This document shows, piece after piece, positions 173 through 10,906 of a stretch of 29,279 bases of DNA. The position numbers and the translations under genes are program-made. Source of the stretch: a virus (taxonomy: Duplodnaviria > Heunggongvirae > Uroviricota > Caudoviricetes); the IMG/VR virus record IMGVR_UViG_2917398303_000005, positions 1 through 29,279 of that record; one strand, 5' to 3'. The notes under the pieces were generated by a model. The model saw only the letters and a program-made list of their open reading frames with translations. It was not told the origin of the DNA and did not search any database. The stretch's first letter is position 1. Every line of letters starts with the position of its first letter.

Positions 173-1222
173 TTACGCAACCTCTGCCGCCACGTTGTCG
201 CCAATACACAGTGACAACGGATTCAAGGTGACAGCTTGTTCAAGATGGTCAGGAGCAAAGTGCGCATACTTCATTGTTTCACGAATATTTGCGTGACCGA
301 GTATCTTCTGGAGTACAAGGATATTGCCGCCATTCATCATAAAATGCGCACCAAAGGTGTGACGTAAAACGTGCGTTTTCTGCCCTTCAGTCAATTCAAT
401 GTTTGTAAGTTTGAGCATCTTCTTAAAGTCCTGATAGCAGGGCTTGAACATTCTACCCTGACGTTCGGACAACTCGTCATACAGCCATTTAGGAATCGGA
501 ACCGTGCGATTCTTCTTACCTTTGGTTTTGGTGAAAGTCAGCTTGCAGGGGGAAAGTTGGGGACGTGTAAGTCTCTCAGCTTCTCCCCATCGTGCGCCGG
601 TAGCCAGGCACACCTTAACAATCATAGTAAGATTTTCTTTGCCATATTGTTCACAGGCTCGGAACAGCTCAGGGAGCTGAGACAAAGTTAGCCAGGACAT
701 TTCCTTCTCAGCTTCTTTGAACACCCGGATCCCATCTAGCGGATTAGGTAAGCTCCACTCCCCTAAACGTTTTAGCTCATTAAACACCGCTTCAAGATAC
801 TGCTGCTCACGATTGACGGTTATCGGCTTAGCGACCCATTTCGCCGGGTCTTTATGGTATCCATTATCTATCTCGCCACGCAGACGGCGGTCACGGTAAT
901 GCGCCCATTCTTTAGCCGTAAGTCGGGATGCAATCGGGTCACCCAAACCGTTACACACGATTTGAAGTTTTGCCAGCCGTGACTTACTGGCGACTAACGC
1001 CTGCCCGTGCAAATTATGCCAAAGCTGGATAATCTCACTTAAGCGCCTGCGGTCTTCTTTCTTACCGAGCCACGGCTTTTCATCGCTTTCGTTTTTTGTA
1101 AATGACTCGAATGCCTCGGCCTCACCTTTGGTATTGAATTGCCGACGGATACGCCGCCCTTCTCGACCATTTGGATAGAGCTCACATAACCATTTGCCAC
1201 TTTTTTGTTTACTTACAGTCAT
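173..1222 (-). CDS. int: phage integrase, tyrosine site-specific recombinase (P2/186 Int-like)
   Basis: 349-aa ORF. The C-terminal region HVLRHTFGAHF...LGHANIRETMKYAHF fits the tyrosine-recombinase R..HxxR..Y catalytic pattern. It sits at the prophage end, co-oriented with the repressor as in P2/186. Confidence 0.9.
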   Translation of the reverse strand: MTVSKQKSGKWLCELYPNGREGRRIRRQFNTKGEAEAFESFTKNESDEKPWLGKKEDRRRLSEIIQLWHNLHGQALVASKSRLAKLQIVCNGLGDPIASRLTAKEWAHYRDRRLRGEIDNGYHKDPAKWVAKPITVNREQQYLEAVFNELKRLGEWSLPNPLDGIRVFKEAEKEMSWLTLSQLPELFRACEQYGKENLTMIVKVCLATGARWGEAERLTRPQLSPCKLTFTKTKGKKNRTVPIPKWLYDELSERQGRMFKPCYQDFKKMLKLTNIELTEGQKTHVLRHTFGAHFMMNGGNILVLQKILGHANIRETMKYAHFAPDHLEQAVTLNPLSLCIGDNVAAEVA

Positions 1223-3384: not shown

Positions 3385-3894
3385 ATGTTTGATTTTCAGA
3401 TTTCTAAACATCCTCACTATGACGAAGCGTGCCGGGCTTTTGCGCAGCGTCACAACATGGCGAAGCTGGCCGAGCGTGCGGGTATGAACGTTCAAACGTT
3501 ACGTAACAAGCTCAACCCGGAACAGCCTCACCAATTCACACCGCCTGAATTGTGGCTGCTGACTGACCTGACCGAAGACTCAACCCTCGTTGATGGCTTT
3601 CTGGCGCAGATTCATTGTCTGCCATGCGTGCCGGTTAATGAGCTGGCTAAAGAGAAATTGCAGTCTTATGTGATGCGCGCAATGAGTGAACTCGGCGAAC
3701 TGGCGAGCGGTGCGGTATCAAATGAACGTATGACCTCTGACCGCAAACACAGCATGGTTGAGAGTGTTAATGCAGGCATCCGCATGTTGTCTCTGTCGGC
3801 GCTGGCGTTACAGGCGCGTCTACAGGCTAACCCGGCAATGTCGAGCGTGGTTGATACCATGACCGGCATCGGCGCAACATTTGGTTTGGTATGA
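3385..3894 (+). CDS. cII: phage 186-type CII transcriptional activator (CP76 family)
   Basis: 169 aa from ATG 3385, with RBS GAGGGAA 8 nt upstream. Begins MFDFQISKHPHYDEACRAFAQRHNMAKLAERAGMNVQTLRNKLNPEQPHQF, which matches my recollection of 186 CII almost residue for residue. Confidence 0.8.
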   Translation: MFDFQISKHPHYDEACRAFAQRHNMAKLAERAGMNVQTLRNKLNPEQPHQFTPPELWLLTDLTEDSTLVDGFLAQIHCLPCVPVNELAKEKLQSYVMRAMSELGELASGAVSNERMTSDRKHSMVESVNAGIRMLSLSALALQARLQANPAMSSVVDTMTGIGATFGLV

Positions 3895-3901
3895 GGTGTT
3901 T

Positions 3902-4126
3902 ATGCAGGAAAATGAACCCTCATTCGCATCTCTGCTCGTTAAGCAAAGTCCAGGTATGCATTACGGTCACGGCTGGATCGCGGGTAAAGATGGTAAGCGC
4001 TGGCACCCGTGCCACTCTCAGTCCGAATTATTAAAAGGGCTGAAATCTAAGCAGTCGAAGTCGTCAGGCTTTTTAATTATTCGTATTGTCCACTTTATTA
4101 TTAAAGGGATTAAGCATGTCACGTGA
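3902..4126 (+). CDS. hypothetical early protein (186 fil/dhr position)
   Basis: In-operon ORF, ATG 3902 with RBS TGAGGTG upstream. 74 aa. No motif recognised. Confidence 0.5.
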   Translation: MQENEPSFASLLVKQSPGMHYGHGWIAGKDGKRWHPCHSQSELLKGLKSKQSKSSGFLIIRIVHFIIKGIKHVT

Positions 4127-5390: not shown

Positions 5391-5436
5391 CACAGCACCT
5401 TTTTAACACTCAACTTTGTGGGAGGCTACACGACCA

Positions 5437-7710
5437 ATGTTATGGAATCAAAAAGAAAGTCGACAGATGATACATGACGGAGGGGCATTAGATATTACTT
5501 TTGCTTATCCGTGGAATGCTCCACGGTCGGCTATAGCCAGCCCATACCTTACTTACGAGCATCAGCATCGCCGCGACCGTATGTTCGCGGCTTTGCTGCA
5601 TGCGAAAAAGGTGCTTTCTCTCCAGCCCGACTGCGTGCGGTTAGATGTTTATCGCACTGCGGCAGTGCTGGAGCAAAATCAGGGCATTCAACGAGCCAAT
5701 GCCTTTTTGATCAGCTTCTGCAAAAAGGCATTGCCGCGTCTTGAATTGGTCGCAAAAAAATACGAATGCGCGGGCATCAACAGCAAGGTATCAACCTCTG
5801 TTTTTGGAAGTCATTTTGATACCCAGCTTATGCAATATCTGGCCTCACGCATGGTTAATATGGTCGCCCGATATAACCGCCTCCCGGATATGTCGCGCGC
5901 TGATGTTGACCTGTTGGCCGCCGATATTGCTAATTTCATTCGTGGTGAACTTGCCAACATTAATGACCACGGATTCGGCGAGCTTAAAACGCTGTACACC
6001 TGGTATAATCGTGCTGGCTTTATTTCCCTCCAGTTCAACGTTATCCCACCCCATTGGGATCGGGTTGCAAAAAAATATGTCGGCGCGGATGAAATCGCAC
6101 CGGCTATCGCCAAGATGTTTAACGATGGGTGGTGGCGTGGTCGTTTGCGCCGGGTTGCAGCTACATGGCGCGAACACCTGCAAATTGCAGTCGGCAACGT
6201 CAGCAAGAAAAAAAACACCTATGCGAGTAAAAACTGCGTGACTGACTGGCGTGAACAAAAGCGCCGAACTCGTGAATTTCTCAAAGGTCTGGATCTCGAA
6301 GACGAAGACGGCAACCGTATCAGCCTGATTGAAAAATATGATGGCTCAGTTGCTAACCCTGCGATTCGCCGCTGTGAGCTCATGACTCGCATCCGTGGGT
6401 TTGAAAACATCTGTAATGAGCTCGGTTATGTCGGTGAGTTTTACACTCTGACCGCGCCGTCGAAATATCACGCCACGACTAAAGCCGGTTACCGTAACAG
6501 CAAATGGAGCGGTGCCAGCCCGGCTGACACGCAAAACTATCTAACCGGTATCTGGGCGCGTATCCGTGCCAAACTGCATCGGGAAGATGTCCGTATTTTC
6601 GGTATTCGTGTCGCCGAGCCCCATCACGACGGTACTCCACACTGGCACATGCTGATGTTCATGCTGCCGGAAGATGTTGAATATGTTCGCTCCATCGTAC
6701 GTAAATACGCGTGGAAAGAAGACCGCCGCGAACTGAAAAGCGATAAGGCCAAAAAAGCACGTTTCCACGCCGAGTCCATTGACCCGGAGAAAGGCAGCGC
6801 AACCGGCTATGTTGCTAAATACATCTCAAAAAATATCGACGGTTATGCTCTCGATGGTGAAACCGATGATGAAAGTGGTGAACTGCTGAAAGAGACAGCC
6901 CCCGCCGTTTCAGCATGGGCTTCGCGCTGGCACATCCGTCAGTTTCAGTTTATCGGTGGTGCGCCGGTGACGGTTTACCGTGAGTTGCGTCGCCTCGCTG
7001 ATACCGAAACCGCGCACGGACTGAGCGTTGAGTTTGCCGCCGTCCATGATGCCGCCGACGCTGGTGACTGGGCTGGGTATGTTAATGCGCAGGGTGGACC
7101 GTTTGTCCGTCGCGATGATTTACAGGTGCGCACACTGTATGAACCGCGTACCGAGCTTAATCAGTACGGTGAGGAAACGGTATGTATTAAGGGGGTCTAC
7201 GATTCCTCCATAGGTGCAGGGAGCCCGATATTAACCCGACTCACTCAGTGGAAGATTGTTCCGAAGCATGCTGTTGATTTGGCCGTTGACCTTCAGGACG
7301 GCAAAGCCGTCCCTCGGAGTTCTGTCAATAACTGTACGGGAAGCGAAAACGATCCACCGGTACTGGATTTGACAAAGCCCCTGAGTCGACGCGAAAGACG
7401 AGAGCTAACCAACCGACTCAGGAAGCAAAAGCCAGCAGCATGGCGAAAATTCATACACGGAACGGAGGAGCAAAACGCAGCTATAGCGAAAACTATCGAA
7501 GAGATACATCTGACAACCGGCATTAATATCAGCCGGGGCGAAGCTCTGCACTTGATGGCCGGTGGTAAAAGTTGTTTTGATGGTAAATGGCTACGCGGAA
7601 CGGCCAAAGGAGAAATATTTTCCACAGCACCATCGCATGAGGCTAAAGCCAGGAAAATCCTTAATCGTGTTGCTGCGATAGCTGAAGCATCAAAACCAAT
7701 ATCAGACTAA
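5437..7710 (+). CDS. A: replication initiation protein A (rolling-circle HUH endonuclease, P2 gpA-like)
   Basis: About 757 aa from ATG 5437 with RBS GGAGG at 5421-5425. HUH motif TPHWHMLMF and active-site tyrosine motif GYVAKYISKNIDG. Size and position match P2 gpA. Confidence 0.9.
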   Translation: MLWNQKESRQMIHDGGALDITFAYPWNAPRSAIASPYLTYEHQHRRDRMFAALLHAKKVLSLQPDCVRLDVYRTAAVLEQNQGIQRANAFLISFCKKALPRLELVAKKYECAGINSKVSTSVFGSHFDTQLMQYLASRMVNMVARYNRLPDMSRADVDLLAADIANFIRGELANINDHGFGELKTLYTWYNRAGFISLQFNVIPPHWDRVAKKYVGADEIAPAIAKMFNDGWWRGRLRRVAATWREHLQIAVGNVSKKKNTYASKNCVTDWREQKRRTREFLKGLDLEDEDGNRISLIEKYDGSVANPAIRRCELMTRIRGFENICNELGYVGEFYTLTAPSKYHATTKAGYRNSKWSGASPADTQNYLTGIWARIRAKLHREDVRIFGIRVAEPHHDGTPHWHMLMFMLPEDVEYVRSIVRKYAWKEDRRELKSDKAKKARFHAESIDPEKGSATGYVAKYISKNIDGYALDGETDDESGELLKETAPAVSAWASRWHIRQFQFIGGAPVTVYRELRRLADTETAHGLSVEFAAVHDAADAGDWAGYVNAQGGPFVRRDDLQVRTLYEPRTELNQYGEETVCIKGVYDSSIGAGSPILTRLTQWKIVPKHAVDLAVDLQDGKAVPRSSVNNCTGSENDPPVLDLTKPLSRRERRELTNRLRKQKPAAWRKFIHGTEEQNAAIAKTIEEIHLTTGINISRGEALHLMAGGKSCFDGKWLRGTAKGEIFSTAPSHEAKARKILNRVAAIAEASKPISD

Positions 7711-7784
7711 TTTATATCCATATCATGTACATACGACAATCGCCCTATTCGTTTTTTTTCTTCCCATCTTTTACCAATACGTGC

Positions 7785-7804
7785 TACTGTATAAACATAC
7801 AGTA
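7785..7804. promoter_or_regulatory. LexA operator (SOS box) overlapping a candidate promoter
   Basis: TACTGTATAAACATACAGTA is a near-perfect match to the CTGT-N8-ACAG consensus TACTGTATATATATACAGTA. It lies about 20 bp upstream of the RBS/ATG at 7824. A -10-like TATAAA sits inside the box. Confidence 0.75.
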
Positions 7805-7823
7805 ACCCTGTAGGAGGGATTCC

Positions 7824-8006
7824 ATGGTTGACGAACATTTCAGCCGAACGCAGCAAAAGTGGGCTTGTGTGCAATTTATTGCCGAGGTATCTCTGATTGC
7901 AAACTGCAAGCCATCAGACTTAAAGCTCGCGCTCACTCTCATTGCAGACCTAGCAAACAGCGAGAATAACGAAACCGAAGATGATAATTTTTATAAGGCT
8001 GATTAG
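7824..8006 (+). CDS. small SOS-regulated ORF (possible Tum-like antirepressor N-terminal part)
   Basis: 60-aa ORF with RBS AGGAGGG at 7812-7818, directly downstream of the LexA box. It ends at an amber TAG (8004-8006) and is in the same frame as the next ORF. Confidence 0.55.
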   Translation: MVDEHFSRTQQKWACVQFIAEVSLIANCKPSDLKLALTLIADLANSENNETEDDNFYKAD

Positions 8007-8009
8007 ATT

Positions 8010-8240
8010 ATGAGAATCAATATCACGTTGGATAAAGAACAAAAATTAGGGCAACAGATCATTGATGCTTTTCAGAATGAAATAACACATCGAGTACAAT
8101 GCGTTTTTCCTGCAATAAAAGTTAACGTCAAGAAAGGGTCAATGACTAGTGTAGAGGTTATCGGATTCGATAAAGAAGCAGACAAAGAAACATTAAGCGG
8201 CATATTACAAGAGATTTGGGAAGACGATAGCTGGCGTTAA
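8010..8240 (+). CDS. DinI-family protein (DinI-like / Tum C-terminal-like)
   Basis: 76 aa: MRINITLDKEQKLGQQIIDAFQNEITHRVQCVFP…ETLSGILQEIWEDDSWR. This parallels E. coli DinI (MRIEVTIAK…ISEILQETWESADDW) as I recall it. SOS-controlled through the upstream LexA box. Confidence 0.8.
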   Translation: MRINITLDKEQKLGQQIIDAFQNEITHRVQCVFPAIKVNVKKGSMTSVEVIGFDKEADKETLSGILQEIWEDDSWR

Positions 8241-8258
8241 ACATGATAACCGTGTTGG

Positions 8259-8315
8259 CGCAAAAACTAGCTTTTTGCGTCGACGGGGTTGAGTAACGAG
8301 CCCACGAGGCTTTAG
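8259..8315. repeat. repeat unit copy 1: 8-bp-stem hairpin plus conserved 34-mer
   Basis: Hairpin cgcaaaaa/ctagc/tttttgcg at 8259-8279, followed by GACGGGGTTGAGTAACGAGCCCACGAGGCTTTAG at 8282-8315. Matches copy 2 at 8686-8720 at roughly 85% identity by eye. Confidence 0.55.
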
Positions 8316-8439
8316 TCCGGCCTTTCAAAATTTCTCAATGTGCTATTGATGACACGCCAGTGATGAATGAGGCATGACCTGAGAGGGTTTTATAGTGGCG
8401 TTTTGACGGCACTGATTAAAATTCATTGAGGGTGATAAT

Positions 8440-8649
8440 ATGCATCGACTACCAGGTGAAATACCGCAGCACCAGACCAGAAATATTAAGTTAATGGCTA
8501 TCGTTCATCGCCTGCAGCAGATAATGGTCAATGAGAATTTGACACCCGCCGAGCTGGTCGGGTGCGCCGAAATAGTCAGGGATAATTGCGGCAAGCTGGA
8601 TAGCATCAGCAGACCGACAAAATACGCACCTCCACCACGTCGACGATAG
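8440..8649 (+). CDS. hypothetical small protein bracketed by the two repeat units
   Basis: 69-aa ORF with RBS GAGGGTG about 7 nt before ATG 8440. Arg/Pro-rich C-terminus. No recognisable motif. Confidence 0.4.
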   Translation: MHRLPGEIPQHQTRNIKLMAIVHRLQQIMVNENLTPAELVGCAEIVRDNCGKLDSISRPTKYAPPPRRR

Positions 8650-8659
8650 CAAACGTCGT

Positions 8660-8720
8660 CAGCGCTGAAACTCGCTTTCAGTGCTGACGGGGTTGAACAA
8701 CGAGCCCCGCGAGGCGTTAG
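8660..8720. repeat. repeat unit copy 2: 11-bp-stem hairpin plus conserved 35-mer
   Basis: Hairpin cagcgctgaaa/ctcgc/tttcagtgctg at 8660-8686, followed by GACGGGGTTGAACAACGAGCCCCGCGAGGCGTTAG at 8686-8720. It lies between convergent orf69 and orf143 and overlaps the orf143 stop. Confidence 0.55.
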
Positions 8721-9148
8721 CTGGTTACCAGATTGACACCGAGGGTAAGCAGGTTTGTCACCGCACCGGCAATCACTCCCGGCGTCCCGTCTTTCACTGC
8801 ACTGATAATCTTATCGCCCATTGTTTCATTACCGCCGAGCGCCTCGGGCTTTTTGTTAAGCACGGCGAGTGCTTTCTCGGTCAGGCGCACATCATAAAAA
8901 TAGGTCTGGTGGTCTGTTCCGTACTGGATGTAGCCGTTTTCACTGAGAAAAGTGAATGTACCCTCAACCACACTACGCAACTGATTCAGTGCGTTCATTT
9001 CTGGTGAGTTAAGTTGTTCAAAGTAGTCATCAGGTAGCGCGGCGTTAAATTTTTCGTAAGTAATGACCTGTGGCACCGGGAAGTTATCCCATAACACCGC
9101 AAAAACTTCCGCCGTCTGCTGGTTAAATAATTCGAGGTTTTTGGACAT
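8717..9148 (-). CDS. hypothetical accessory protein, reverse-oriented cargo gene at the P2 tin/old position
   Basis: 143-aa ORF with RBS AAGGGA about 8 nt upstream on the minus strand. Soluble-looking N-terminal ~110 aa plus a Gly-rich hydrophobic C-terminal tail (GTPGVIAGAVTNLLTLGVNLV). Opposite in orientation to the flanking genes. Confidence 0.6.
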   Translation of the reverse strand: MSKNLELFNQQTAEVFAVLWDNFPVPQVITYEKFNAALPDDYFEQLNSPEMNALNQLRSVVEGTFTFLSENGYIQYGTDHQTYFYDVRLTEKALAVLNKKPEALGGNETMGDKIISAVKDGTPGVIAGAVTNLLTLGVNLVTS

Positions 9149-9206
9149 GCATAATTCCCTTTCATCGATAGACCCGTTTGCCGATTGGGCAAAAAAGCTG
9201 ACTGTA

Positions 9207-9338
9207 ATGGCATCGAATAACGACCTGAGTTCTCGCGAGGTGGAAAGCTACACCGCAAAAATGGTCGACCAAGCCAGTAAAGATGAGCTTACGGTCGTTA
9301 TAAAACACCTGTTAAACCACATCAGAATGCACAAATAA
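9207..9338 (+). CDS. possible small ORF divergent from orf143
   Basis: In-frame ATGs at 9147 and 9207 within the 9063-9338 ORF; no convincing RBS. The 9147 start would overlap the orf143 start codon back to back. Protein from 9207: MASNNDLSSREVESYTAKMVDQASKDELTVVIKHLLNHIRMHK. Confidence 0.3.
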   Translation: MASNNDLSSREVESYTAKMVDQASKDELTVVIKHLLNHIRMHK

Positions 9339-9664
9339 AAGGATCTATATCAATATGTTATCTCTCGTTTATGAAAATCCGTGGACGACGATTTTTCTGC
9401 TGATTGTTGCCAGTATGTGCCTCAATAGTGTTATTGGCGCATTGCGCGGCCAGTAATCGCGACAAAACCAGACCCAAACCGGCACCCTGAATGCCGGTTT
9501 TTTTATGCCATTTTCCCGCGATTTCCCCGTTTTTTAGCCGTGCATGCAACAGGTGCATGGTTTTGCATGCGTCGGGGTTGCCCGTTCTGGTCGTGCGCCG
9601 CCAGTGCTGGCGCGGATTCAGAGTGGTCATGCAACTGCATTAAAACCGACCCATAAAGCGGGCA

Positions 9665-9683
9665 GGCGTGGCGGGGAAAGCAT
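9665..9683. other. cos site, 19-nt cohesive-end sequence (186-type)
   Basis: GGCGTGGCGGGGAAAGCAT matches my recollection of the phage 186 cohesive end (P2: GGCGAGGCGGGGAAAGCAC). It is where cos is expected, between the accessory locus and portal gene Q. Confidence 0.55.
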
Positions 9684-9822
9684 TGCGCGCCAGCGGTGGT
9701 GCGTAATAATAAAAATTATCCTCTGAGCGCGTCGTGATGGCGCTGTAGTGGATGCTGTCGGCTCGTTGGTGGTCTGGTGTGGCCGTGCGCGTGTGGTGCG
9801 TCTGAGGAGTGATGATAGCGGG

Positions 9823-9849
9823 GTATGAAAAAGCCGCCATGCTGGCGGC
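9823..9849 (-). terminator. intrinsic terminator after Q (minus strand)
   Basis: Perfect 7-bp GC-rich stem gccgcca/tgc/tggcggc at 9833-9849, followed on the minus strand by UUUUU (plus-strand A-run 9828-9832), right after the Q stop at 9860-9862. Confidence 0.6.
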
Positions 9850-9859
9850 TTGAGGGGGA

Positions 9860-10906
9860 TTATTCCGGGTTGTCTAGGGTGTACTCTTTGAATCTGATGA
9901 CCTCCATGCCGAGCCAGTCGTTTACCTCCCTGAACCTGTCCTGCAGGGGTGACAGCTCATTACGAACGAATACCTTTGCTACCTTCTCAACGTCACCGAG
10001 TGAACCGATATTCTCGGGCTTGCCGCCCATGAGCTGGAACGGTACGCGGTGCGCGTCCATCAGGTCGGCGGCACTGGCTTTCTTGATGTTGAAAAAGTCA
10101 TCCTTTGTGGCTACCTCGCTTAGTGGCACGATTTTGATGCCGTCCGGTTTTCCACCAGGAGCGTAGAAAAACAGGTTCTTAAAGTTGCCGAGCCCTTTTG
10201 AGTTGCGCATCGCCTCGCGCAGCGATTCGACGTCGGTCGCGCTCTGTGCCGGGTCGGTCACATACATGATGTAACCTGCATGCGCGCCGTTCTGGTAATA
10301 CTTGCGGCGGAACAGTGTCGCGGATTCATTCAGCCAGGCGGAATTAAGCGCGCTGAGATATTCGGGCAGACCGTAAATCTCCTGATTAATATCGGGCTCC
10401 AGCAGGTGAAACACGGTATTAGGGGCGAACTCGTGAGGCTGAGTGAAGTTTTCCACAAACCAGAAAATCGAATCGTCGACCCCGCGGCGGGTGTATTTGG
10501 CCGGTGAAGCCAGTAGCTTGATTAACCGGCCGGTGACGCTGTGGCGCTGCTCAAGAAAGGCGTTGCCGAATACCAGATAGTCGAGCGCAAAGCGGCTGAA
10601 ATCCTGACGTGACAGAAGCGGGTGTGGAATGTAGGTGCTCGCGAGCACGTTGCGTTTAACGTAAATCGGCGAGCTGTGATGTACGGCAGAGCGAAGGCTC
10701 TTTGCCAGTCCGGAAAAGCTGACCGGCGGCTCGTACCATTTGCCGTTACTGATGCACTCAACGTAATCCAAAATATCGCGCTTATCGAGTACCGGCACAG
10801 GCTCACCGAAGGTGAACGCTGTCGTTTTTGGTGGTGCGCTGGCGGTTAGTTGTTGTGGCTTGCTGGCCTTCTGCGCAGCGGCTTTACGGGATTTTTGTTT
10901 ACCCAT
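9860..10906 (-). CDS. Q: portal protein (P2 gpQ-like)
   Basis: 348 aa. MGKQKSRKAAAQKASKPQQLTASAPPKTTAFTFGEPVPVLDKRDILDYVEC… closely parallels P2 gpQ in sequence and size. Adjacent to cos and co-oriented with terminase. Confidence 0.9.
   Translation of the reverse strand: MGKQKSRKAAAQKASKPQQLTASAPPKTTAFTFGEPVPVLDKRDILDYVECISNGKWYEPPVSFSGLAKSLRSAVHHSSPIYVKRNVLASTYIPHPLLSRQDFSRFALDYLVFGNAFLEQRHSVTGRLIKLLASPAKYTRRGVDDSIFWFVENFTQPHEFAPNTVFHLLEPDINQEIYGLPEYLSALNSAWLNESATLFRRKYYQNGAHAGYIMYVTDPAQSATDVESLREAMRNSKGLGNFKNLFFYAPGGKPDGIKIVPLSEVATKDDFFNIKKASAADLMDAHRVPFQLMGGKPENIGSLGDVEKVAKVFVRNELSPLQDRFREVNDWLGMEVIRFKEYTLDNPE

Follow-up and report, generated by a model that had tools for sequence, protein, structure and literature searches.

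A conserved two-hairpin element at the left border of the gpA-cos cargo region of P2-like phages, a candidate cis-acting RNA module

Introduction

The T4-type PeSL cassettes (Arbiol et al. 2010; Comeau et al. 2014; PMC2839356, PMC4122927), which join a strong sigma-70 early promoter to a terminating stem-loop and occur in many copies per genome, are the closest functional analogue of the element described here. This element, of about 70 nucleotides (nt), stands twice in a P2-like prophage of the Caudoviricetes (IMG/VR record IMGVR_UViG_2917398303_000005, positions 1 to 29,279; the whole 29,279-nt stretch is referred to as the window), between the replication gene A (gpA) and the cohesive-end site (cos). 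Similarly to PeSL, it is a conserved intergenic stem-loop motif that flanks small accessory open reading frames (ORFs) in a plastic region, with junctions at the motif; in both, recombination at the motif would shuffle modules, and a gene that lies between two direct copies can be looped out. The two differ in that neither unit of the element has a promoter-like site in or next to it, or a terminator signature in a terminator scan. The element is also limited to one or two copies, is read through in phage 186, and includes an invariant 30-nt tail with a second hairpin. It is conserved among P2-like phages, folds on the sense strand with the support of compensatory changes, and is tentatively read as a cis-acting RNA module at which accessory genes appear to be exchanged.

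Hairpins between cistrons are known to act on phage messages. In the intercistronic RNase III hairpins of T7 and the sib retroregulation of lambda, the hairpin, retained as a 3' end, determines how stable the upstream message is, and processing can alter translation downstream. The element resembles these systems in placing a long hairpin behind one stop codon and ahead of the ribosome-binding site that follows in a phage early transcript. Its main hairpin (P1), of 19 positions with 1-2 non-canonical pairs, is borderline in length for the roughly two turns of double-stranded RNA of a T7-type RNase III site. By contrast to T7, P1 lacks the characteristic internal loop, and neither the T7 nor the lambda sites have an equivalent of the invariant single-stranded linker and tail. 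The lambdoid 'boundary' or 'linker' sequences associated with Susskind and Botstein and with Clark et al. 2001 are said to be short, weakly conserved and located at mosaic junctions, and to our knowledge no fold has been demonstrated for them. The element is likewise conserved at gene boundaries where mosaic junctions cluster, but differs in that it forms a strongly covarying structure of 70 nt and contains an invariant 30-mer. Integron attC sites share with it a folded single strand at ORF 3' ends, a conserved base and a stem kept paired by compensatory changes.

The DinR RNA of Klebsiella (PMC10907235) derives from chromosomal dinI, ends at the terminator of that gene and pairs with the ftsZ ribosome-binding site. 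DinR and the element both occupy the 3' portion of the transcript of an SOS-induced dinI-family gene, the role of the element as RNA being predicted. Compared by description, the element differs in that it is phage-borne, usually does not lie beside a terminator, also follows unrelated genes and is without ftsZ complementarity. The gpA-cos region in which it resides, described as a cargo hotspot of P2-like phages by Rousset et al. 2022 (PMC9122126), is among the best-known reservoirs of anti-phage defence systems, and the fast turnover of its contents is at issue. Rousset et al. 2022 speculated that the cos ends and a second homologous exchange drive this turnover.

Sequence and fold of the element

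A preliminary description of the window reported two units, each a stem-loop followed by a 35-nt motif, and both are found where it placed them. The units share a direct repeat of 46 nt with 78% identity (8258-8303 and 8662-8707, spacing 404 nt), and the core GACGGGGTTGANNAACGAGCCC occurs twice in the window (at up to 3 mismatches) and in none of 100 shuffles. A covariance model built from relatives scores unit 2 at 88.9 bits and unit 1 at 63.1 bits; over the whole window, its only other matches are the reverse strands of these same units (at most 17 bits).

The element has four parts: (i) P1, a hairpin with 19 positions per arm and a 5-nt loop, which opens with AAC and closes with GTT, (ii) a GAACAA linker, (iii) a mini-hairpin, CGAGC-NNN-GCGAG, and (iv) a GCGUUAG tail. 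The base of P1 (AAC, then G or C, opposite G-GUU) is near-invariant and the rest of the stem is variable. The NNN loop of the mini-hairpin is hypervariable, and the linker and tail are invariant across copies. Unit 2 represents the consensus form and unit 1 a slightly diverged copy. Of the stem-loops as first described, the 5-nt loop stands, the stems of 8 and 11 base pairs give way to the 19-position arms, and the 35-nt motif proves to hold the mini-hairpin in addition.

Folding of both strands, proposed as a check in the preliminary description, reveals a stable sense strand and no comparable stability of the antisense. Relative to shuffled sequence, the sense-strand RNA folds with z = -3.4 (unit 1) and z = -4.3 (unit 2), compared to z = -0.2 and z = -1.75 for the respective antisense strands. 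The structure is kept by compensatory changes. P1 comprises 17 pairs, of which 12 are changed on both sides; pairing is kept in 90-92% of the cells of its alignment, and 0 of 500 shuffles reach the covariation score; when the 3' partner is slid by 1-3 columns as a control, pairing falls to 28-48%. The mini-hairpin, with loops of 2-5 nt, alternates between a tandem G·A form (CGAGC/GCGAG), CUCGC/GCGAG and CCCGC/GCGGG. The central G·A/A·G is replaced by U-A/C-G in the second form and, in one lineage, by C-G/C-G with both strands changed in the third. G·U far outnumbers A·C, at about 9:1 (159:17 and 177:19 in two alignments), and is the commonest state at some pairs. Thus, the sense strand is the folded strand. 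A local duplication without conserved structure, which the preliminary description had named as a way to dismiss the similarity, is contradicted by these compensatory changes.

Other signals and structures were considered and rejected. The P1 loop (CUCGC) could form a pseudoknot with GCGAG in some copies; however, the loop varies (CUGGU, CUUGA, UUUAA) while GCGAG is fixed. An alternative closing helix, AACGCC/GGCGUU, appears in the minimum free energy fold of unit 2, but copies of the AACC type cannot form it, and the helix is beyond a covariation test because the tail is invariant. As first described, neither hairpin has a U-run behind it: what comes next is GGTTGAAC and GGTTGAGT, without a T-run, and the terminator scan that calls the operon-end terminator (9476-9510) is silent on both units, which excludes a classic intrinsic terminator. 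An antisense-strand terminator is rejected in turn, as the antisense strand has a hairpin weakened by A·C mismatches and a poor U-tract. Look-alikes of boxA, ops (GGCGGTAG compared to GGCGTTAG), IHF and sigma-54 sites are partial or not kept across copies, and a Chi-like GCTGGCGG occurs in some hairpins only; these look-alikes count as leads at most.

Distribution among phages and prophages

The 78-nt unit matches 98 phage records, which include 186, PSP3, Wphi, SopEPhi and EtG and cover phages of Escherichia, Salmonella, Klebsiella, Yersinia and Erwinia; the SopEPhi copy (strain SL1344) lies at about 9255-9323 of AY319521. In IMG/VR, a scan with an exact pattern adds at least 120 contigs with at least 102 distinct sequences, and more than 150 distinct copies are found overall in P2-like phages. 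A sample of loci anchored on the DinI protein, and so independent of the motif, supplied unbiased variants; about 70 of its 77 loci have the element. By the covariance model, a locus carries one or two copies and never more, with exactly two in the window. Among 5426 E. coli genomes, 506 have the element in 1-2 copies each (median 1), compared to 2622 genomes with a P2-type portal gene. A loose-pattern scan of genome contigs returned 120 matches, mostly chance occurrences in unrelated bacteria; the 7 genuine ones are from Enterobacteriaceae wherever the organism is identified. Matches on plasmids represent a P2-like prophage integrated in an IncC plasmid.

Local duplication could account for two direct copies at a spacing of 404 nt, and a common host repeat of the REP type was the other dismissive explanation named at the outset. 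A functionless duplication or REP-type repeat nevertheless has next to no probability: hundreds of copies, with covariation, occupy one place in diverged phages, copies number 1-2 per genome, and all those examined lie inside P2-like prophages, including the one in the IncC plasmid.

Canonical P2, Fels-2 (which has a DinI gene), P4 and phiCTX are without the element; thus, it is dispensable. A cmscan of 7000-10500 against Rfam 15 at E<=10 gives no hit that overlaps 8248-8315 or 8652-8720. No account of the element is found in Rousset 2022, in the 2026 NAR and Commun Biol surveys of P2 or in literature searches with motif strings, a scope outside which the older P2 tin-old papers (Nilsson et al. 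2004, Odegrip et al. 2006) fall. The element is a candidate new structured RNA family, apparently undescribed, which combines unusually good covariation support with a place in an SOS-controlled operon.

Genomic position and neighboring genes

The element follows the end of gpA by 0.4-2.2 kilobases (kb) and shares its strand in all 110 located contigs, and it lies upstream of the oppositely oriented portal gene Q in 93 cases. The similarity search outside the window that had been suggested as a check thus places the motif at the same boundary in well over 100 related phages. This position is kept in a large group of phages with a gpA only ~36% identical to that of the window, which argues that conservation of the 30-nt 3' half far exceeds that of the surrounding proteins.

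At least six unrelated families stand upstream of the element (DinI/TumB, gp37-like, 186 Orf97, TumA-like and at least two others). The gap from stop codon to hairpin is 1-8 nt in most of these families and ~20-25 nt in two (TumA-like and one other). Read-through, recoding and bypass of the upstream stop codon are rejected, as the stops vary (TAA, TAG, TGA; some in tandem) and no conserved extension follows. Downstream neighbors are more variable than upstream ones. An ATG stands 2-3 nt behind TTAG in 31 copies, which puts GAGG 8-9 nt ahead of the start. At this standard spacing, the invariant GAGG is a Shine-Dalgarno sequence. The genes that start just after the element belong to two unrelated families, PHROG 2100 and a UmuD-like protein. 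Proteins of the PHROG 2100 family (85-93 amino acids, MGSKDxNYQVVYRG...GGGFWLGRTYD), always encoded 2-3 nt 3' of the element in the copies seen (e.g., loci L016, L010 and L027), have no match in a Pfam comparison. Elsewhere, a convergent cargo gene comes next and ends in or beside the tail. The window is of this kind: the TAA stop of the reverse-oriented orf143 (8717-8719) is the complement of TTA within the TTAG of the unit 2 tail, and the ORF list confirms that, as first described, the two units flank the 69-amino-acid ORF.

On the cos side, 30 of 81 loci are cargo-less, with the element ending 165-211 nt before cos; this distance is larger where cargo is present. The cargo-less loci are of two types: (i) those spaced 208-211 nt from cos, as in 186, which have a hairpin-U7 terminator of the 186 t95b type ~22-23 nt 3' of the element (22 of 81), and (ii) those spaced 165 nt from cos, in which the element runs into the cos-proximal region without a separate terminator (8 of 81). 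Cargo inserts between the element and the terminator or cos; thus, the gpA-cos hotspot has the element as its left border.

This proximity to cos in cargo-less phages, the invariance of the 30-nt tail and the GCGAGGCG that the tail shares with the P2 cohesive end would suit a binding site for a phage or host protein on double-stranded DNA (e.g., an extended cos/terminase region or an operator). Such a site is very improbable. Compensatory changes and a strand-specific wobble bias of 9:1 are properties of a folded single strand and not of a duplex palindrome, kilobases of cargo are tolerated between the element and cos, canonical P2 packages without the element, and variation in cos is not mirrored in the tail, which has GCGAGGCG while the 186-type cos has GGCGTGGCG. 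The stretch in question, at 8709-8716, runs from the 3' arm of the mini-hairpin into the tail and equals nt 2-9 of the P2 cohesive end GGCGAGGCGGGGAAAGCAC (locus L244, 6576-6594); the match may be a coincidence.

Certain loci depart from the common arrangement. In 186-type genomes (phage 186, L001, 1704-1735), the slot behind tum/dinI holds the partial terminator t95a and the element is found behind orf97 instead; t95a and the element both end in GGGGTTG and are alternative occupants of one slot. Locus L048 (IMG/VR contig 3300011853_000021) has two modules of DinI, element and an 85-amino-acid ORF (3854-3937, minus strand, and 6230-6313, plus strand), which are inverted and 2.4 kb apart, consistent with a rearrangement or an assembly chimera.

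Mosaic junctions and cargo exchange

Mosaic junctions cluster at both edges of the element. In pairs of loci that are similar upstream and unrelated downstream, homology is lost at +30/+31, right after TTAG, in 177 of 243 cases; in pairs similar downstream and unrelated upstream, it is lost at -39 to -42, the base of the hairpin, in 83 of 119. Homology of the window to P2, Wphi and PSP3 stops at 8720-8725. In the other direction, homology to FSLSP004 and Midge starts at 8651-8652 and that to other genomes at 8278-8284. Two arrangements exist, DinI-element-gp37-element and DinI-element, and where only one copy is present, its arms are mostly of the second-copy type, which is what recombination between direct copies, with loss of the ORF between them, would leave. 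These junctions directly support the element as a predicted module boundary, where accessory and defence-cargo genes swap between phages. Of the 'recombination scars at module boundaries' first suggested for the repeats, the boundary therefore stands, with breakpoints at both edges, but not the scar, as the element is a selected, folded sense-strand sequence. RNA processing or stability elements and protein-binding sites were the other options offered there. A different route is apparent in the cargo-less loci L078 and L289, in which the 20 nt that adjoin the element on its 3' side (CTGGTTACCAGATTGACACC, window 8721-8740, from the 3' end of orf143) are still present and fused to the terminator; thus, their cargo was lost by an imprecise internal deletion and not by exchange at the element edge.

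A selection-kept 70-nt patch between variable modules suits homologous exchange, so the element may have a role in recombination without a special enzyme. A dedicated site-specific recombination system is not shown by the data. Such a system, with an attC-like folded strand that captures and excises ORF cassettes and cargo, would agree with several features: the AAC...GTT base is conserved and the rest variable, GTTGAAC fits the core GTTRRRY, the element follows ORFs like the 3' end of a cassette, junctions coincide with its edges, and arrangements with and without an orf69-like cassette occur, single copies having mostly the second-copy arm type. An attC-like site is quite unlikely, however, given how the element differs from attC. 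The breakpoints fall at the outer edges (-40, +30) and not at G|TT. The 5' side (e.g., AGCGAAC, GCAAAAC, TGATAAC) is neither RYYYAAC nor complementary to GAAC, such that the core halves pair only as AAC/GTT. The 25 nt beyond GTT form an invariant extension that an attC-type exchange would not keep. More than two copies are never found, and the cargo genes carry none. No integron-type integrase is seen, the sole recombinase seen being the phage integrase, which was not compared with IntI. Ordinary homologous recombination within the 70-nt patch explains the junctions.

The element would give the second anchor of exchange a concrete identity at the left edge of the variable region. It may be of use as a precise landmark of the hotspot and as a natural docking site for engineered cargo swaps.

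Function of the element

The element is perhaps best viewed, if tentatively, as a cis-acting RNA module in the 3' untranslated region or intercistronic space of an SOS/early operon. This reading is favored because of the compensatory changes, the tolerance of G·U, the swaps between G·A and Watson-Crick pairs, the placement between stop codon and ribosome-binding site, the LexA-controlled/early transcript and the use of the tail as a ribosome-binding site. In the GenBank annotation of 186, the p95 transcript passes the element and ends at t95b, with partial termination at t95a; thus, the element is transcribed and is not the terminator. P1, directly behind a stop codon, would act as a 3'-end barrier and/or a processing site for the upstream cistron. 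The invariant linker and the tail with its mini-hairpin may form the binding place of a conserved host factor, while the tail would supply the Shine-Dalgarno GAGG to whichever gene sits next. As the only sequence held constant between variable genes, the element would also be the crossover point at which homologous recombination swaps small accessory genes and gpA-cos cargo. Its two direct copies would allow the loss or gain of the orf69 cassette, and cos with the terminator would provide a second homology patch for exchange. We infer RNA, and not single-stranded DNA, to be the active form, and the stabilizing or processing role and the host partner are likewise predicted.

Several points weigh against the cis-acting RNA module. 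Every functional step of the model is inferred. The 30 nt stay invariant where no gene follows (186, unit 2), which a stabilizing or ribosome-binding role does not explain, and the model leaves unexplained how an element missing from canonical P2, Fels-2, P4 and phiCTX, and hence dispensable, is nonetheless invariant. Pairing with the E. coli ftsZ ribosome-binding site (RNAduplex, -60 to +40, the sole target tested, chosen by analogy with DinR and DicF) is no better than in shuffled controls, of which 0.18-0.62 do at least as well. Finally, nicking by gpA at the origin (ori) displaces the very strand that folds; thus, strand bias alone cannot part RNA from single-stranded DNA.

The last point leads to a reading of the element as a single-stranded DNA signal on the gpA-displaced strand, used for lagging-strand loading or priming (P2 B/DnaB/primase) or as a secondary site of gpA, an HUH nickase. 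A hairpin base with an invariant 3' single-stranded tail is an architecture that many single-strand DNA enzymes recognize. The folded strand is the one that is nicked and displaced, with the units 0.9-1.3 kb 3' of the ori motif, the orientation of the element is always that of gpA (110 of 110), and the invariant tail suits recognition by a conserved host replication protein. A signal of this kind is nevertheless unlikely, as canonical P2 and Fels-2 replicate without the element, the distance from ori to the element varies from ~0.6 to 2.4 kb, and 31 copies use the tail as a ribosome-binding site. G·U, the commonest state at some pairs, is tolerated more easily in RNA than G·T in DNA. The tail is without an invariant CTG primase start site, and the element holds no second copy of the ori nick motif CTCGGAGTNCTGTCAA. 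A gpA origin-like copy is rejected in the same vein: the element shares at most a 7-mer with the ori region, partly in the variable NNN (reverse strand).

A trans-acting small RNA differs from the cis-acting RNA module in where the transcript would work. In this alternative, an RNA of ~125 nt of the Hfq type, made in the cargo-less arrangement and resembling DinR, would use the linker or tail as a seed for a conserved host mRNA. Single-stranded invariant segments between hairpins, including GAACAAC (A-R-N-like), are typical seeds and Hfq sites. The LexA-controlled operon has a DinI gene that ends 7 nt before unit 1, 22 of 81 loci have the hairpin-U7 terminator ~22 nt 3' of the element, and Klebsiella DinR provides a precedent (PMC10907235). 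By contrast, in most phages, including the window, cargo of 0.1 to more than 1.7 kb parts the element from the terminator with equal conservation; in the window, the terminator lies 756 nt after unit 2, and unit 1 is internal to the operon. The ftsZ start region, moreover, shows no pairing beyond that of shuffled controls. A trans-acting small RNA is improbable.

A bolder proposal, also improbable, is that the two-hairpin module represents a new class of phage nucleic-acid signal, in which the invariant 30-mer recruits a conserved host machine and the element acts as a 'socket' that actively promotes the capture and exchange of defence cargo at gpA-cos. Candidates for this machine are RNA polymerase, an RNA chaperone or nuclease and, on the strand that rolling-circle replication displaces, a single-strand DNA enzyme. 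If true, this would provide a mechanism for the turnover of the hotspot rather than a passive homology patch.

Gene layout of the window

The features of the window are collected in Table 1. Rightward from gpA, the order is LexA box, tumA, dinI/tumB, unit 1, orf69 and unit 2, followed by cargo, the t95b-like terminator and cos.

Table 1. Features of the window and parts of the two units (aa, amino acids)
Feature	Position	Strand	Assignment and basis
Prophage type	whole window		186/PSP3-like, P2-family
Integrase	173-1222	-	Phage integrase
Replication gene A (gpA)	5416-7710		
gpA origin nick motif (ori) CTCGGAGTNCTGTCAA	7313-7328		Sole good match in window
LexA box TACTGTATAAACATACAGTA, perfect	7785-7804	+	Read from sequence
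tumA-like ORF, 60 aa	7824-8006	+	PHROG 1993, E=2e-31; PSP3 tumA synteny; first SOS-operon gene
DinI-like gene (tumB-like), 76 aa	8010-8240	+	Pfam DinI PF06183, E=2e-18
Unit 1	8248-8315	+	Covariance model, fold
Unit 1, P1	8248-8290		Arms 8248-8266/8272-8290, loop 8267-8271
Unit 1, linker GAGTAA	8291-8296		
Unit 1, mini-hairpin CGAGC-CC-ACGAG	8297-8308		
Unit 1, tail GCTTTAG	8309-8315		
orf69, 69-aa ORF	8440-8649	+	PSP3 gp37-like, PHROG 11386; between units
Unit 2	8652-8720	+	Covariance model, fold
Unit 2, P1	8652-8694		Arms 8652-8670/8676-8694, loop CTCGC 8671-8675
Unit 2, linker GAACAA	8695-8700		
Unit 2, mini-hairpin CGAGC-CCC-GCGAG	8701-8713		
Unit 2, tail GCGTTAG	8714-8720		
orf143	8717-9148	-	PHROG 2266, function unassigned; first cargo gene, convergent
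Cargo gene	9063-9338	+	PHROG 2454, function unassigned
Hydrophobic 33-aa ORF MLSLVYENPWTTIFLLIVASMCLNSVIGALRGQ	9355-9456	+	Ends ~20 nt before t95b-like terminator
Intrinsic terminator, 186 t95b equivalent	9476-9510	+	Terminator scan; 186 annotation/sequence; cross-locus comparison
cos cohesive-end sequence GGCGTGGCGGGGAAAGCAT	9665-9683	+	Right border of cargo region; from sequence
Portal gene Q	9860-10906	-	

The LexA box occupies the position of the p95 promoter in the 186 annotation and is the predicted start of an SOS operon that carries both units. Since the box is perfect and precedes tumA, the prophage is probably SOS-inducible like 186 and PSP3. Relatives of the DinI-like gene are annotated as PSP3 TumB or 'DinI', and its TAA stop lies 7 nt 5' of unit 1; the TAG stop of orf69 lies 2 nt 5' of unit 2. 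The pairing of an orf69-like ORF with the element recurs in PSP3, Wphi and many IMG/VR contigs. In BLAST comparisons to phage records, PSP3, SEN1 and one E. coli phage match the whole region, while P2 and Wphi match orf69 and the second repeat only.

The two cargo genes of PHROG 2266 and PHROG 2454 form a divergent arrangement, and neither is matched by the PADLOC defence models. The strongly hydrophobic 33-aa ORF that follows, also without a match in a PHROG comparison, may encode a small membrane peptide or a toxin-like product. Many related loci, with other cargo or without, share its 3' end and the spacer behind it. The t95b-like terminator is the real end of the rightward operon. Between this terminator and cos are TGCATG repeats (GTGCATGCAACAGGTGCATGGTTTTGCATGCG, 9540-9575) that are kept in 186 and P2, lie directly 3' of the element in one large phage group and may be terminase-binding repeats.

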